From contig CM000155.2 of NCBI GenBank assembly GCA_000004695.1, positions 2,176,001-2,240,000 on the forward strand: DNA of 64,000 bases, given 5' to 3'. Source of the DNA: Dictyostelium discoideum. Its lineage: Eukaryota. Shown piece after piece: positions 18,668 through 27,379 of the stretch. The translations under genes were made by a program, and so were the position numbers. The notes under the pieces are model-generated. The model ran no database searches. It saw nothing but the letters and a program-made list of their open reading frames with translations, and was not told the origin of the DNA. The number at the start of each line of letters is the position of its first letter. Positions within the stretch are counted from its first letter, which is position 1.

Positions 18668-20220
18668 ATGACAACTCAAATCTATCAGGTTCCAGTTGTC
18701 AGTAATGGTCTTAGAGAAACTGAATCTATTCTTCAAATTGTAGATTCACTTGAAAAACTTGAAAAGGTTTTTAATGATATGTATTCAACAATTTCTGCAA
18801 GAGTATCACATGAAAAATCAAGAATTGATAATGTTGCAAATAGATTAAATAATGCACAAGTATGTTTTTTTTTTTTTTTATATTAAAATGGTAATAATAA
18901 ATAGCTTACAACTAGTTGTATTAATATATATATATTCTATTTTTTATATGTTTTTTTATTATTTTATTTTTTTTTTTTAAAAAAAAAAAAAAGCATAAAG
19001 TTAATCAAATTGTTGGTAGTAAACAAGCAATAACAGTATTTAGTAGTGCAAAATATCCAGCAGATAAGAAATGGGGAGATTATGTACCAATTTATAGTGG
19101 AAAACATAAATTACCATTTAAACCATCACATTATCATGGATTGAATAGTGAAGATAGTCCAATTAAAAAGAGACCAGAGGATTCATATTTGGATGTAAAT
19201 GATTTAGTTTTCATTGAAAAGAGTATTGATACCACATCGAAAGAAGTGGAGGTTAAGGAAGGTCTTGGTAGAATTCCAGCACAGATTCCAAGTGTTTCAA
19301 ATCTTTTATTATTTAATACTCAAGAGAATCCATACAAAAAGTATTCAAATACATTGGACAATTTATCAGGTGGTGATGGTGGTGAAGATGACTACACAAT
19401 ATTTGGTGACCAATTGTCAAAGAAGAAGAGATTGGGTGACGCTCCAGTCACCGTTAAAGATGGTGATAGTAGAATCGATGCTGAAAACGTTAAAATCGGT
19501 TACGAACCTGGTACTTTTGAAATACCAGTTTACAATTTCCCTTCAATTTTACCACTTCCAAATGTAGCTGAAAATATTACATGGGCTGCTGAATCTCAAA
19601 GTATTGCTCCATCTCAAAAAGCGACTTTAAATTTATTACCAACTTATGATAATTCAAACTCAGGTAGTGCACCTGTAAATCAATCTTCAGGTGGTGATAA
19701 TAATGTAAATAATAATAATAATAATAACAATAGTAATAATAGTACAGGTATAATGCAACCACCACAACCTACAAATGCACCACCACCTCCTCCACCACCA
19801 CCACAATCTGCTAATGCCCCACCACCACCTCCACCACCACCTGTTTCTGCTCCACCACCATTTAATCCACCAAGTGTTAATAGTAACAATGATGACGATG
19901 ATGATGACGATGATGATAATGGTGGCGGCGGTGGACCAGGTGGTGCTATAGGTGATTTATTGGCTGATATTCGTCGTGGTCATAAAAATAGATTAAAAAA
20001 AGCTGATGTTGGTGGAGATAATGGTGATGGTGAAGATAATAAACCACCACCAGTTTCTGATGGAGGTGGCGGTTTAATGGGTGATCTTTTCAAAAAATTA
20101 GCACTTCGTAGACAATCCATTGCAACTACAAAATCAACTAAAAAACAATCAAAATCAAAGAAAGAAGATACTGATGACCAAGATGGTGAATCTGATACCG
20201 ATTCTTCTGAATGGGAATAA
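18668..20220 (+). CDS. WASH complex subunit 1 (WASH1)
   Basis: join(18668..18859,18994..20220). The N-terminus YQVPVVSNGLRETESILQIVDSLEKLEKVFNDMYSTISARV...AQ | HKVNQIVGSKQAITVFSSAKYP aligns to human WASH1 ([26 protein letters not shown]...GSKKAIKVFSSAKYP). SNLLLFNTQENPYKKY is the WAHD motif. The C-terminus has poly-Pro, a WH2-like LLADIRRGHKNRLKK, an acidic D9 run and a terminal EWE. Confidence 0.85.
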
Positions 20221-20527: not shown

Positions 20528-23039
20528 ATGTCCTTAACAATGCAACAAAGTGATAAAGAAAAAGCCTCAGAAAAACCTTCTGAAACTATTATTGAGGAAA
20601 AAGATTTAATAAGCCAACAAACTATACAAAATGAAAATATGTCAAATTCGATAACAACTACGACTACAACCACAAAACCAACCCAACCTTCACCATTATC
20701 AGCTGAGCAAATAATACGAAATAATTCCAAATCAACAGAATTAAAAAATGCATCATCTCAAGAAACCCCATCAAATCCACCACCACCAACACCATCAAAT
20801 CCCCAATCATCAAATCCCCAATCATCAAATCTTCAACCATCAATAACAGTTACTAAAGAAAGTGGTATGGAACCAGACTCGCCAACCATTTCATCAACTA
20901 AAAAGGTAAAGTATTTCCCTTTAACACCTTATCTTGATAAATTGGATCAAATTAAAAAAGTACAAGAAATCAGTGCCGATGATATGATGAATGATCCAAA
21001 TTTATTAAAGATGTTTGATGATGATAAAATGTTTTTAAGTACACCTGAAAAGAATTCATCTTCATCATCATCATCAGTATCTTCACATTCTGATAGAATT
21101 GATAGTAGTGGTGAAGTAGATTTTTTTGATTTATACGGTTCATTATCAGATAGTGATGATTCTAGAGTTTCATCTCCATCAGTGGATCTTTCAGATTCAT
21201 CATCAATAGCATCTCCATCATCAACACCAGTAATCAATGCAACCCCACAATTAGTTTCAATCTCCGAATCTAATGAAAATGATTTATCAATATCAATATC
21301 AACTTCACCACCAAACCAATCTTCAATGAAAATCGACGATAATAAAAAACCAATAAATGAAGGAGAGAAAATTATACAAATTGAAAATGAAATAAAAGAA
21401 CAAACTTATTTGGAAACTATTAAAAATGTTGAAAACACAGTATCAAAAACATCAACCATAGCAACAACACCAACACCAACATCAACACCAACACCAACAC
21501 CAAAATCAACACCAACACCAAAATCAACACCAACGACAACAACAACTACCACATCTGTAAATAATATAACACCAACCATGGTTTCGAATGAAAAACAAAC
21601 CACTACAACAACCACTAAAACTAAAACATCACCACCACCACCAACACCACCACCAACATCACCAACATCAACAACATCACCAACGTCATCAACACCACCA
21701 ACACCACCAACACCACCAACACCACCAACACTACCAACTAAAATAACAAAAAAATCTTCCACAAATAAAACATCAGAAAAAAAAGAGGAAACAAATAATC
21801 AAAAAGAACAACCATCATCATCATCATCATCGTCATCATCATTAAAAAAGAATATAGTTCAAAAACAGATTAAAAAAATTAAAGTAAAAATTGAAGATAT
21901 GGCAAACAAAAAATATCCAAATAGTAAAAGAGTAACCATCAATGGTGGGTCAGCACCACCAGATGATGAATATTATCAAAATTTATTGGAATACTTAAAG
22001 GAGGAACAAGAATTTAAACCAAGTCCATTACCAAAAGAATCATTAAAGGATGGACATGTATTTATAGTTTATGGTGATTTAACAAAGTTGGTATGTGATA
22101 TTAGAATGGTACCATGTAGTCATAATGTAGTATTTAGAGATACAATCAATGGATGGTTGAAACCTGATTGGATGTTATTCCCCTTTGAAATTAGAAATAA
22201 ATTTAAGGATATTCGTATTGATTTCCGTGATGGTAGGGATAGAGTTTATAAATTAAAAGATTGGCCAACTGAATATCCAAACATTTCACAACCATGGCTT
22301 TGCAATGTGGTTCCATTCAAACGTGGTATCGACTCACATTGTTGTGCCTGGTATGTAAAAGGTGCAATTGACTTTTTGGATAAGGTCGGACACGATCTTG
22401 AAGTCAATAAGCCGCCCATCAAAAATGGAAGAGCAAAACCATTGGTAAGTCTACCCATTTTGGGTACTGGTGGGGGTGGCGGTTCCAGAATTGCCGGTCA
22501 AATTCTATCATTGCTAATTCATGAACTATTTGTTGCAACTCGTAAATGGAAGTATGATGTTGTTTTAGTAACAAATGAAATTTCAATGTACACAGCTGCA
22601 ACCAATATAAGAAAAGAATTAATAGAATCAAACCCAACCTTCTCTTCAATCTATCGTAATCTATTGGGTGATGAAATTATGAAAAAAGCACACACCTTGG
22701 GAAAACTATTAAGAGAGGATAAATTGGCAATATTCCTTGGTGCTGGTAGTTCTCGATCAGCAGGATTACCAACTTGGACAGGTTTACTAGATATGTTGGG
22801 AGCAAAACTTGGTATGACAGAAACTGAACTCAGACAAATGGAACAACTTCATCATTTAGATCGTGCAACAGTATTAGAATCTCGATGGAAAAAACAATTA
22901 AAAAAATATTCTGAAAATATTAAAACTTCTTCTAATTCTCCTTCTTCTTCTTCCTATTCTTCTTCTTCTTCTTCTTCAAATATTTTTACACCATCACTAA
23001 ATAAAATGTTTGAAAATGATAATTTAGATGGTGCAACAA

Positions 23040-23072
<33 letters not shown>

Positions 23073-24031
23073 ATGGTTTAAAAACTACAAAAGAAGTTAA
23101 TGATGAAATTTTAAAAATTAAAAATGAAGAGAGACAGAAACAAATAAGAGAAGAAAAAGAATTATTAGAAAAAAAAAACCGTGAAAAATTAGAAAAGGAA
23201 CAAAACTTTGAATATATTCATAAGAAAATCTATAATCAAATTAATGTGCCAATGCAAACAGAGATTGCAAATCTAATGAAGGTATCACATGCAGGTTTAC
23301 CTCATTTCCTATTGGCATCGACACCTGTTCAAGAGATTGTAACCACAAATTATGATCAATGTTTTGAGATTGCTAGTAGATCTATTGGGAAGGAAATTTG
23401 TGTTTTACCATACCATTCGTTGAATGGTCGTAATAAAAGATGGATTTTAAAGCTACACGGTTGTGTTTCAAATCCTAAAGATATCATTATAACTCGTGAA
23501 GATTACATTAGATATGGGGATAAGAACGAAGCATTGTCAGGCATGGTCCAAGCATTGTTAATTACAAAACATCTATTATTTGTTGGTTTCAGTTTAACTG
23601 ATGACAATTTCTATCAAATTATGTCTGCTGTTAAACGTGCGACATCCACTGGTGAAGACGGCAGTGTCAGATTAAAGAATACTTTTGGCACAGCCCTATT
23701 TCTTCAAAGAAATGATTTAATGAATGAAATTTGGGGTAAGGAATTAAATATTTTATATTTTGATGAAAATAAATCCGATATTGCATGGTGTGCTAGAAAA
23801 CAAGAAATCTTCTTGGAATATCTAACTGGAGTTTGTAGTAATAATAATACAAGTCATTTAATGGAGAAAAGGTTCGATTGTCTATTAAAAGAAGGTGAAA
23901 AAATATTTAGAGATCGTTTAATTGAATTTGTTTCTTCATTACCTGAAGAAGCAATTAAATCTGATGCTTTCAAAAAGTTTCATGTATTTTTAACTGAAAT
24001 GGGTTATGATAGTAGAAATTTTTATTATTAA
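20528..24031 (+). CDS. large protein: disordered S/T/P-rich N-terminus + cryptic Macro-like domain + C-terminal SIR2-like (SIR2_2/ThsA/FAM118-type) domain
   Basis: Single 1167-aa ORF. The C-terminal region has the three SIR2_2 hallmarks: KLAIFLGAGSSRSAGLPTWTGLL (GAGxS..G.P.W), IVTTNYDQCFE (TTNYD) and RWILKLHGCVSNPKDIIITREDY plus LLFVGFSLTD. The mid-region GHVFIVYGDLTKLVCDIRM ... PLVSLPILGTGGGGGSRIAGQILSLLIHELF...YDVVLVTNE resembles macro-domain motifs GDITxL...DAIV and FPAISTGxYGxP...A..I..fl. Residues 1-480 are Thr/Pro/Ser-rich repeats (TPTPTS..., PPTPPTPP). Confidence 0.75.
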
Positions 24032-24298: not shown

Positions 24299-25143
24299 AT
24301 GGATAAATTTGTTATTATTAAATGTATAAATCCAGGATTTATACCACCAAAAGAGAAAAAAGAGGAGCCAAAAAAAGAGGAGCCAAAAAAAGAGGAATCT
24401 AAAAAAGAGGAATCTAAAAAAGAGGAATCCAAAAAAGAGGAATCTAAAAAAGAAGAACCAAAAAAGGTTGAGATAAAATCAGAAACAAAAAAGAAAAGAG
24501 CAGCAAAATCAAAAACAACCAATAATACTACAACTTCATCTACTACTACCACAACCACCACAACCAATAATAATGAAAGTACAAAAACAGGATTAGCAGC
24601 AATAATAACACCAGTAACAGAAATTAAAAAACAACCACAACAGACCTTAGTAAGTCATTTCTTTTCAGCTAATACAGGTGATAAACCATCATATAAATTT
24701 TTATTTGAAAAAGAAGCAGCTGATAGAGCTGAAGAAGAAAGAAAAAGAGCAGAAAGAATCGCAAAAGAGGAGGCGATTTTGGCAGAAAAAAGAAAACAAA
24801 TCCAAAAAGCAAAATTAGAAGCAAAAAAGAAAAGAGAAATAGAAAGAAGAAAGAGAGAAGAAGAGGAATGGGAAGAGTATTTAGCAATGCAAGAAAAAAC
24901 AACCAAAGGTGTTGAAATTATACCACACCTTTATCTAGGTTCCTTTTTGGCTGCTAAAAACTCTGAATGGTTATTAGAAGCAAATGTTACCAAAATTGTA
25001 AATGTAACTTCCGAAGTACCATCTTACTTTTTAAGTAAAAAAGAAAAAGAAAATGATAAGATTATATCTGAAAAGGATGAAATTGATTCTTTTATTGTTG
25101 ATGATGATGAAGATGAAAATGAAGATGAAGATGATGAAGATAT

Positions 25144-25186
<43 letters not shown>

Positions 25187-26131
25187 AATGAAGATGAAAA
25201 TGAGGATGAAGATGGTAATCAGGATGAAAATGTTGACATTGGTGATGAAAAAGATAAAGAAATGAAAGATTTACCAATAACACCTTCCCCTAATGAAAAG
25301 AAAGAAGAAAATATAGAAATGAAAGATAATGATGATAAAGATCAAGAAATGAAAGATTCACCAGCGGCAGCAGCAGCAACATCTTCCACTAATGAAAAGA
25401 AAGAAGAAGAAAATGTAGAAATGAAGGATGAATTAACAATAAATAATATACCAATTAAAATTGATCAAGTTAATGAAGATGTTGATAGTGAGAAAATTAA
25501 AGAACTTTCAATTAAATATTTAAGAATTTCAATTTCTGATAGTTTTAGATCAAAAATTGAAAATTATTTCCAAGAAGCAATTGATTTCATTAATCAAGGT
25601 AATGTGGATGGTAGTGAAAAATCAAATGTTTTAATTCATTGTAAACAAGGTAGAAGTAGATCACCATCAATCGTAATTGCTTATTTAATGTCAAATGAGA
25701 AATGGACTTTAGAAAAGGCATTCAATCATGTCTCTAGTGTAAGTCCAAAGAATTTAACAGTTAATGATGGATTCAAAAAGAAATTAATGGATTTAGAAAT
25801 GGAATTATTTGGTTCAAACTCTATTAACTTTTTTGATAGATCAAATAGAACTTCAAGAGCAAATATTTCCTCTGCTGCAATCACTTCAACTTTAAATATC
25901 ACTCAAAAGAGAATTAAAAATCAGAATAAAAAAAATGATGATATTAACAACAACAACAACGACGACAATAATAATGAAGATAATAAAAATAAAAATGAAG
26001 AAAATGTCGTTGATACAGCAGATGTAGTATTACCAACAAATTTAAAAGTTGAAGATGATGCCTCCACTATCGATCAATTAAAAGTTGTAAAAAGAAGAAA
26101 AAATATCTCCATAGTAGAAGATGATGAGTAA
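24299..26131 (+). CDS. dual-specificity protein phosphatase with KE-repeat N-terminus and a large acidic insertion
   Basis: DSP start EIIPHLYLGSFLAAKNSEWLLEANVTKIVNVTSE. The P-loop VLIHCKQGRSRSPSIVIAYLM (HCx5R) lies about 190 aa downstream, after a D/E-rich insert (DDDDDDDDDDDDENEDE...). The N-terminus has (KKEE(S/P))n repeats. Confidence 0.8.
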
Positions 26132-26493: not shown

Positions 26494-27379
26494 TTATCTT
26501 AACCATTTAAGACAAATGATTAAAGCAATGATACCCATTAATAAAAGAATGATAATTGATAAAATAACTTTGTTTGTTGCTAACCTTCTGGCAATTCCAG
26601 TCATAATTTTTCTAGCTGATTTAATTTGATCATCAGTTTCATGTAATTTATCCCTCATACCTCTAATTTGTTCACCTTGTTTACCTAAATCCATTAAAAT
26701 ATTTTGTCCAATTTGTTCACTTTGTGCTGAAATTTGATGTGTTCTTAATAATCTATCAGATGTTGAATCTAACATATTACTACCTTGAAGTAAATGTTGT
26801 CTTTGATTATCATATTGTGACTAAAATTTAAAAATTTAAAATGATAATATATAATTAGCTAATTTATTATATAACATAAACCTAAATAATAAAAATAATA
26901 ATAATATTTTTAGATAAACATACTTGGTAATCATCAGGTGCATTTGACCATGGATTACTATTTGTTTGATTTGAAGATTGTAACTGTGCTAATTGAACTT
27001 CTCTTTTATATTTTTGAATATCAGAATGATATTGTTTTGTTTTAGTTTGTAACTTTATTCTTTGTGGATGGTTTTGTGCTAATTTTTCCATTTCTGAAAT
27101 CTATAAAAAAAAAATAAAAACATAAACAAAGGTGTAAGTATTTACCCTTTTTTTTTTTTTTATTTTTTTTTATTTTTTTATTTTTCAAATATTGTTATAT
27201 ATATAACAATAGTTAATAATAATTCTTACAAATTTTAAAGCTTCATCAATATCATTTTCAACTTCTCTAACGGCGATCTTTTTCTTTTCACCTCCATAAT
27301 TTGGTAACTGTTTTATTCTTCTTGTGATTGAGTTGCATACATGCTGAAAATTTTGTTCGGTTCTTTCAAATACATCCAT
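26494..27379 (-). CDS. vti1: Qb-SNARE Vti1 homolog
   Basis: complement(join(26494..26820,26924..27100,27230..27379)). The SNARE motif LLRTHQISAQSEQIGQNILMDLGKQGEQIRGMRDKLHETDDQIKSARKIMTGIARRLATNK plus C-terminal TM LSIIILLLMGIIALII aligns to human VTI1B. Both introns are phase 0 (TTT|GTAAGA, CAA|GTATGT). Confidence 0.85.

Follow-up and report, generated by a model that had tools for sequence, protein, structure and literature searches.

A macro domain that has lost the hydrolase motifs, fused to a ThsA-like SIR2 domain in Dictyostelium discoideum and bacteria: a probable ligand sensor

Bacterial antiviral immunity relies on sensor-gated SIR2 NADases as central effectors, and the FAM118/SIRanc relatives of these proteins act in vertebrate innate immunity. 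In type I Thoeris the sensor of the SIR2 domain is a SLOG domain, and in type II Thoeris ThsA senses its signal through a macro domain (PMC11204291; bioRxiv 10.64898/2025.12.03.692087). The type II macro domain binds His-ADPR, ADP-ribose (ADPR) or IAD, and oligomerisation activates the effector (PMC11204291; bioRxiv 10.64898/2025.12.03.692087). Among eukaryotic proteins, one sentence of a preprint describes a SIRim clade C whose members typically contain SIRim and Macro and which branches with ThsA-like proteins (bioRxiv 10.1101/2024.09.18.613514). Here we analyze a protein of 1167 amino acids, the numbering of which is used throughout, encoded in a 64,000-nucleotide stretch of the Dictyostelium discoideum contig CM000155.2 (the window). 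A low-complexity N-terminal half is followed in this protein by a macro domain, a linker helix and a SIR2_2 domain, and the family to which it belongs is referred to below as Macro-SIR2. Our analysis suggests that the macro domain is probably no longer an ADP-ribosyl hydrolase and is the N-terminal sensor domain of a ThsA-like SIR2 NAD+ glycohydrolase.

The initial annotation of this DNA had placed a putative macro domain at 21990-22700, and an AlphaFold2 model, Foldseek and a family profile all bear out the macro fold. An exhaustive HMMER search provided 526 relatives at E<=1e-3, 36 of which were aligned for AlphaFold2. The model of residues 501-712 (predicted local distance difference test, pLDDT, 89.6; predicted template modelling score, pTM, 0.88) is a three-layer alpha/beta/alpha fold with the macro strand order. 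Among the top 50 Foldseek matches in the PDB, every identifiable one is a macro domain or a macro-derived designed protein; 81 matches lie at E<=1e-3, the best at 1.3e-5, and the matches include YmdB, OiMacroD, TTHA0132, the macro domains of PARP9 and PARP14, alphavirus nsP3, macroH2A and Af1521. A SLOG, TIR-like or unrelated fold, each named beforehand as an alternative, was looked for in the model and not found. At the sequence level, a profile built from 79 bacterial family members and the window sequence (80 in all) matches the macro domain of the Capsaspora macroH2A1.1 with E=4e-5, and its alignment to rat macroH2A1.1 runs through both ligand loops with E=0.36, which is not significant alone; an earlier profile gave a macroH2A match at E=6e-4. 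In a word-indexed protein search the macro domain by itself gave 0 matches, and the family profile gave 15, mostly fragments. Taken together, the model and the profile matches indicate that this is a genuine macro domain, though a strongly diverged one, and that the resemblance is not due to chance. The annotated interval spans the entire domain, and both motif strings quoted for it are present in the forward-strand reading frame; its first base misses the codon boundary, which is at 21989, by one position.

Residue conservation was counted over 175 pooled non-identical family members, at the positions of the window protein. The loss of the NAAN/GGG signature from loop 1, already claimed for the Dictyostelium protein, holds across the whole family. 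In the hidden Markov model (HMM) alignments to macroH2A, on which the mapping of loop 1 rests, VPCSHN...W stands opposite HPTNTDFYIGGEVG of macroH2A. The NAAN position reads PCSH in the Dictyostelium protein and P-[TCS]-[DGS] across the family, and the position of the last Asn is occupied by Asp (63%), Gly (17%) or Ser (13%), with Ser in the Dictyostelium protein. No residue exceeds 50% at positions 532-542, which contain no conserved Gly, Asp or His, and the only conserved residues of the loop are P529 (99%) and W543 (96%). Residues 537-544 are also the least confident part of the macro domain in the full-length model (pLDDT <50). The active-site arene is lost as well, since Y145 of Af1521 aligns with G650, a Gly in 95% of the members.

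These losses cover the features that are tied to macro catalysis, namely the NAAN motif, the catalytic residues and the arene (Ariza et al., PMC11490716). GDAP2-like macros, which have lost all catalysis-linked features, have no reported activity (PMC11490716). In Zn-Macros, on the other hand, a Cx4HxC zinc loop replaces the Gly-rich loop, the NAAN motif, the arene and a Dx3H motif are kept, and the proteins are hydrolases (PMC11490716). No Cx4HxC loop takes the place of loop 1 in the Macro-SIR2 family, where Cys occupies position 530 in only 33% of the members and positions 532-542 are variable, and neither Dx3H nor NAAN is found in it. Thus, the domain lacks the features that define MacroD-type ADP-ribosyl hydrolases, namely NAAN, the Gly-rich catalytic loop 1 (GGG with a D/H dyad, or HGGG) and the arene, and a Zn-Macro hydrolase is rejected for want of Cx4HxC, NAAN and Dx3H. 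With the catalytic features and the zinc motif missing family-wide, the domain is unlikely to be a hydrolase of any macro type described so far. The generalization that macro domains without the motif are typically binders is too simple, because the reader macroH2A1.1 keeps the loop-1 glycines and Zn-Macros, in which the Gly-rich loop is replaced, are still hydrolases.

Loop 2 is conserved in pattern, in agreement with the initial annotation (P643 99%, G646 95%, T647 91%, G648 88%, G650 95% and G651 99%), and is followed by a further conserved glycine, G657 (93%). In the alignments LPILGTGGGGG corresponds to AFPSIGSGRNG of macroH2A and to AFPAVSAGIYG of Af1521; an hhalign comparison of the family profile with the single Af1521 sequence covers only loop 2 through beta7, with a score that is not significant. 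The labels 'proximal' for loop 1 and 'distal' for loop 2 were imprecise, as both loops line the pyrophosphate and the distal ribose in solved macro complexes (PMC11204291). Strand beta2 is conserved (H510 94%, F512 99%, G516 83%, D517 93%), and D517 at its end aligns with the adenine-contacting Asp of macroH2A; the equivalent Asp of the EcThsA macro domain, D83, hydrogen-bonds adenine N6 (PMC11204291). The level of conservation of D517, of the glycines and Thr of the GTGxGG segment (88-99%) and of W543 suggests that the cleft residues are under selection. H510, C523, D524, R635 and D677 (22055-22057, 22094-22099, 22430-22432 and 22556-22558) are among the most invariant residues, with 93-100% conservation.

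The fusion to SIR2 that had been noted in the Dictyostelium protein is borne out across the family, in which the macro domain is always joined to a ThsA-like SIR2 domain with the catalytic Asn and His. Both residues are invariant (N441 and H477 in alignment numbering; Asn941 and His977 in the Dictyostelium protein), and the presence of GAGSS, TNYDQ and LKLHGC, likewise invariant in the family, matches what is expected of SIR2_2/SIRim immune-type sirtuins (GAG, Asn, His). SIR2_2 is the sole Pfam domain detected in the 1167-residue protein (E=4.4e-31). By sequence, the SIR2 part matches the PDB entries of ThsA (7uxt, 6lhx, 8bto, 8wc0), KomC and DSR2, and FAM118B weakly, with E-values of 1e-13 to 4e-16 for the ThsA structures 7uxt, 6lhx and 8bto and E=8e-33 for the PADLOC model ThsA1. 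Foldseek of the full-length model likewise places BcThsA, KomC, SeThsA and DSR2 on top. No SLOG match was found C-terminal to SIR2, where the region is helical, and the PADLOC ThsA models match the SIR2 part only (profile positions 71-212 of 478). All full-length relatives examined have the same layout in 510-560 residues: an N-terminal macro domain, a helix of about 30 residues, 'LVLFLGAGVSxGAGLPxW' and the rest of SIR2_2, with the length of the approximately 30-residue spacer before the GAG motif conserved in all of them. The Dictyostelium protein aligns with its bacterial homologues from the first macro strand to the C-terminus, and stretches of the SIR2 core are very similar. The full-length model has a pLDDT of 84.5 and a pTM of 0.82 in spite of a disordered insert of about 100 residues, and the latter value suggests a defined arrangement of the macro and SIR2 domains in the predicted structure.

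The Macro-linker-SIR2 module (about 530 residues) is found in at least 537 bacterial species in a scan of one genome per species. The best 80 bacterial loci are mainly from Myxococcota (Polyangium, Minicystis), Planctomycetota (Gemmata), Bradymonadia, Chloroflexota and Eremiobacterota/Xenobia. Eukaryotic members come from Dictyostelium dimigraforme, Polysphondylium violaceum, another dictyostelid-like EukProt sequence, Vermistella antarctica and Capsaspora owczarzaki; in the macro region, the D. dimigraforme protein (KAN0050425), an orthologue, has 97% identity to the window protein. Those family members that carry a functional name are labelled hypothetical or SIR2-like. Several members show variations of the layout. 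The Capsaspora protein (P0023, CAOG_00925, 1082 residues) has a weak B-box/ZZ zinc-finger match, below the Pfam cut-off, before the Macro-SIR2 module, a layout reminiscent of TRIM-type immune proteins. In a JGI metagenome protein of 1112 residues (P0007) the whole module is present in tandem duplicate (Macro-SIR2-Macro-SIR2), and its loop 1 reads 'VPTNHN', nearer to the 'HPTN' of macroH2A. In two ENA metagenome contigs (L001 and L002) Macro and SIR2 are called as separate short genes, which is probably due to frameshift fragmentation, either through an assembly error or in a pseudogene.

The reading of the macro domain as a sensor, which we consider the most economical one, rests on the conservation of the adenine and phosphate contacts, the loss of all catalytic features and an obligate fusion that parallels type I and type II Thoeris. 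It is also favoured by the profile match to macroH2A1.1, a non-catalytic reader, and by the similarity of the SIR2 part to ThsA, KomC and DSR2, which are immune NADases activated by a ligand or a partner. Ligand binding, the nature of the ligand and the activation, rather than inhibition, of SIR2 are what we infer from this evidence. In the mechanism that we propose, a ligand with an adenine-diphosphate moiety, such as ADP-ribose, one of its conjugates or isomers, or NAD+ itself, would dock in the macro cleft, where the conserved Asp517 and the Gly-rich loop 2 would hold it, perhaps together with the invariant Trp543 of the flexible loop 1. A ligand in the cleft may then alter how the macro domain and the linker helix pack on the SIR2 domain, or drive oligomerisation, and either change would turn on NAD+ cleavage at the SIR2 active site (Asn941, His977).

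Several observations weigh against a sensor role. The Pfam Macro model does not detect the domain, and Pfam, NCBIfam and PADLOC gave no match to it in the window protein and the 10 homologues scanned. The loop-1 glycines, which macroH2A1.1 keeps (IGGEVG), are entirely lost, and as loop 1 helps to hold the pyrophosphate and distal ribose in the known complexes, canonical ADPR binding may be altered or lost. The invariant H510, C523, D524, R635 and D677 are located, by strand topology, at the edge of the sheet opposite the cleft, where their conservation is unexplained. Finally, no signal-producing partner, TIR or other, is conserved among the neighbours scanned beside the bacterial genes or present among the families listed for the 64-kb window. 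The total loss of loop 1 in particular argues against hydrolysis and equally leaves room for an altered ligand or for none. In the latter case the domain would be a 'dead' macro, a structural or oligomerisation module comparable to the macroH2A1.2/2-type or GDAP2-type macros that lost ADPR binding, and SIR2 would be controlled by protein-protein contacts or by expression level. We consider this doubtful, because the adenine-contacting Asp and five loop-2 positions are conserved at 88-99% in bacteria and eukaryotes that share only about 30% overall identity, which is hard to explain without a phosphate-containing ligand, and because loop 1 itself has kept its Trp in nearly all members.

In a second alternative, the macro domain would be a non-canonical hydrolase that removes ADP-ribose transferred by SIR2 to itself or to a target, or that processes the SIR2 product, so that the two domains form a writer-eraser pair like SirTM/Zn-Macro and the fused Mfs1. 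This is very unlikely. The invariant polar residues lie away from the cleft by topology, and in a motif alignment the position of the TARG1-type Asp in loop 2 presumably corresponds to a conserved Gly. The NAAN, arene, Asp/His dyad and Cx4HxC of Zn-Macros (PMC11490716) are all missing in the family, and the SIR2 domain, an NADase of the SIR2_2/ThsA type, keeps the catalytic His that is replaced by Gln in SirTM (PMC11490716). In a third alternative, the macro domain would sense the substrate or product of the SIR2 domain itself, with NAD+ or ADPR acting as a metabolic feedback or feed-forward gate and no external immune signal. Such self-sensing is a sub-case of the sensor model that sequence does not distinguish, and it appears improbable since constitutive exposure to millimolar NAD+ would require a mechanism that keeps the enzyme off. 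The sensor model can also be extended: Macro-SIR2 may unite sensor and effector in one self-contained chain and serve an ancient NAD-based alarm pathway that dictyostelid amoebae and Capsaspora have in common with Myxococcota, Planctomycetota and other bacteria. In this extension, the degenerate pocket and the invariant Trp of its remodelled loop 1 would read a signal nucleotide that is not one of those used in Thoeris I, II and IV. The signal would come from an enzyme whose gene lies at another locus, or from the ADP-ribosylation activity of a pathogen, and would trigger NAD+ depletion or cell death in the eukaryote. We regard this extension as speculative and rather unlikely.

To characterize the gene neighbourhood in bacteria, six-frame open reading frames (ORFs) within 6 kb of the gene were clustered for 82 loci. 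No neighbour cluster is common to more than 20 of the 82 loci, and the largest cluster is a mix of kinases and response regulators. Profile scans covered 50 neighbours that are close to the gene and on its strand, and TIR/ThsB is not among their 25 most frequent Pfam/PADLOC families. Without a widely shared neighbour or a TIR among the families listed, Macro-SIR2 behaves as a stand-alone gene and not as part of Thoeris; membership in type I or type II Thoeris was rejected for want of an adjacent TIR gene (thsB), and assignment to type I ThsA also for want of its C-terminal SLOG domain, which binds 3'cADPR. A defence-island context is unsupported as well: most neighbours have housekeeping functions, and a DruE-like helicase, an STK-AAA protein and an MmeI-type methyltransferase with integrase each occur in a single case.

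A few associations, with a DAGK/YegS-like kinase, an STK-AAA protein and a DruE-like helicase, are confined to sub-clades. In four loci of Xenobia/Eremiobacterota type a homologous ORF of about 301 residues overlaps the start of Macro-SIR2 by 10 nt (Table 1), which suggests an operon specific to this sub-clade; the two of these ORFs that were scanned (L025 and L047) are DAGK_cat/YegS-like kinases with an NAD-kinase-like fold. In a Polyangium locus (L014:4102-7998) a Ser/Thr-kinase-AAA_16 protein of 1298 residues ends 16 nt inside the Macro-SIR2 gene, and similar long upstream ORFs in two further loci (L011 and L012) fall into the same loose neighbour cluster. The DruE-like helicase (1965 residues; L018:2073-7970) lies 21 nt upstream in one Deltaproteobacteria metagenome-assembled genome, and the integrase and MmeI-type methyltransferase are near the gene in L001.

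In Dictyostelium, the neighbours in the window are ordinary eukaryotic genes (WASH, dual-specificity phosphatase, v-SNARE, prolyl oligopeptidase, a CCT subunit and a Ras GTPase). The 26 other window ORFs that are 130 residues or longer gave a list of 25 Pfam families, and no TIR or other NAD-signalling gene is in this list. The N- and C-terminal WASH_WAHD parts of the WASH gene match separately, together with a weak WH2 match and a proline-rich tract. The dual-specificity phosphatase has a long K/E-rich N-terminus and a poly-Asp/Glu insert, and two short ORFs on the same strand as the v-SNARE exon (26882-27091 and 27185-27379) may be upstream exons of that gene. The window is very AT-rich, with a GC content per kb of 12-37%, and homopolymer runs are abundant in its ORFs, as in dictyostelid genomes.

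The Dictyostelium protein differs from its bacterial homologues in two regions. The bacterial proteins lack the N-terminal extension and have the macro domain at their very start; no Pfam match was found within the extension (residues 1-507). A short motif in this low-complexity half, KKVKYFPLTPYLDKLDQIKKVQEISADD (residues ~124-152; ~20897-20983, forward strand), is conserved in dictyostelid orthologues (P0001, P0003 and P0005) and could be a docking or localisation motif. The second region is an insertion within the SIR2 domain that is not present in the aligned bacterial homologues and consists of an S/T-rich part followed by a K/E-rich part. In the model, residues 807-851 have pLDDT <50, and the K/E-rich part is predicted as a single very long helix.

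Table 1. Features of the Dictyostelium Macro-SIR2 gene, its neighbours in the window and an ORF overlapping the gene in four bacterial loci
Feature	Position	Strand	Basis
Single-exon ORF, 1167 aa	20528..24031	+	ORF list; uninterrupted
Low-complexity S/T/P/N-rich N-terminal region, aa 1-507	20528..22048	+	Translation
Macro-fold domain, aa ~508-705	22049..22642	+	AlphaFold2 model, Foldseek, profile search
Strand beta2, GHVFIVYGDL, ending in D517	22052..22081	+	gDL aligns with aDI of macroH2A1.1
Degenerate loop 1, MVPCSHNVVFRDTINGW, aa 527-543, replacing NAAN...GGGV	22106..22156	+	Aligns with VVHPTNTDFYIGGEVG
Gly-rich loop 2, LPILGTGGGGGS, aa 642-653, phosphate-binding loop between beta6 and alpha4	22451..22486	+	Alignments to Af1521, macroH2A
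Linker helix, macro to SIR2, aa ~703-729	22634..22714	+	Helix 203-229 of full-length model
ThsA-like SIR2_2 NADase domain and C-terminal helical region, aa ~733-1167	22724..24028	+	Pfam SIR2_2
GAGSS motif, SIR2 domain	22727-22753	+	Translation
Dictyostelid-specific insertion of ~105 aa within SIR2 domain, aa ~802-905	22931..23242	+	Alignment, model
TNYDQ with catalytic Asn, SIR2 domain	23345-23359	+	Translation
LKLHGC with catalytic His, SIR2 domain	23447-23464	+	Translation
Upstream gene, WASH-family actin regulator, two exons	18668-18886, 19141-20220	+	
Downstream gene, dual-specificity phosphatase	24299-26131	+	DSPc, E=5e-25
Vti1-like v-SNARE, C-terminal exon	26494-26775	-	V-SNARE_C, E=8e-13
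ORF of ~301 aa overlapping Macro-SIR2 in bacterial loci	L025:1638-2543, L027:712-1617, L039:6105-7010, L047:7093-8001		

A full-text literature search returned no paper that uses 'macro-SIR2' or 'SIR2-macro', and the Thoeris and TIR survey papers list no Macro-SIR2 effector. With the single sentence on SIRim clade C and no other mention, the architecture has been noted in the literature but not characterized. As far as could be found, the large bacterial family, the lack of a TIR partner and the loss of catalysis with retention of the adenine and phosphate contacts are undescribed. If the macro pocket binds a nucleotide, the identity of this ligand would define a new trigger of NAD+ depletion, and Dictyostelium would offer a tractable eukaryotic model of bacterial-type NAD immunity. 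Also, as Pfam, NCBIfam and PADLOC all miss the macro domain, its annotation would be mended by a profile that draws on the present alignments.

Of the described systems, Macro-SIR2 shares features with both types of Thoeris and joins two of their known parts anew, a macro sensor on a SIR2 effector. It resembles type I ThsA (SIR2-SLOG) in having a putative nucleotide sensor fused to a SIR2_2 domain that is closest to ThsA by sequence and fold. It differs in that the sensor of type I is a C-terminal SLOG domain and that of the Dictyostelium protein an N-terminal macro domain, and in that no adjacent TIR protein was found at the 82 bacterial loci (frequent families, same-strand neighbours) or among the window families listed. 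With type II ThsA (TM-macro) it shares a non-catalytic macro domain as the probable receptor and an aligned and conserved adenine-contacting Asp. The macroH2A-like readers (macroH2A1.1, PARP9 macro 2, PARP14 macros 2 and 3) are set apart by loop 1, the glycines of which are kept in macroH2A1.1 and absent from the Macro-SIR2 family. In GDAP2 the macro domain is fused to a CRAL-TRIO/Sec14 domain and not to SIR2, and no significant sequence relationship was found between GDAP2-like macros and the Macro-SIR2 domain. The SirTM/Zn-Macro pairs and the fused Mfs1 of Fusarium differ in both partners: their Zn-Macro is active, with NAAN, arene, D/H dyad and zinc loop, and SirTM is an ADP-ribosyltransferase of another sirtuin class, whereas the sirtuin of the Dictyostelium protein is SIR2_2. 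The SIRim and Macro architecture of the eukaryotic SIRim clade C is that of the Dictyostelium protein; the preprint on this clade (bioRxiv 10.1101/2024.09.18.613514) contains no macro-motif analysis, bacterial Macro-SIR2 family or clade C experiment.

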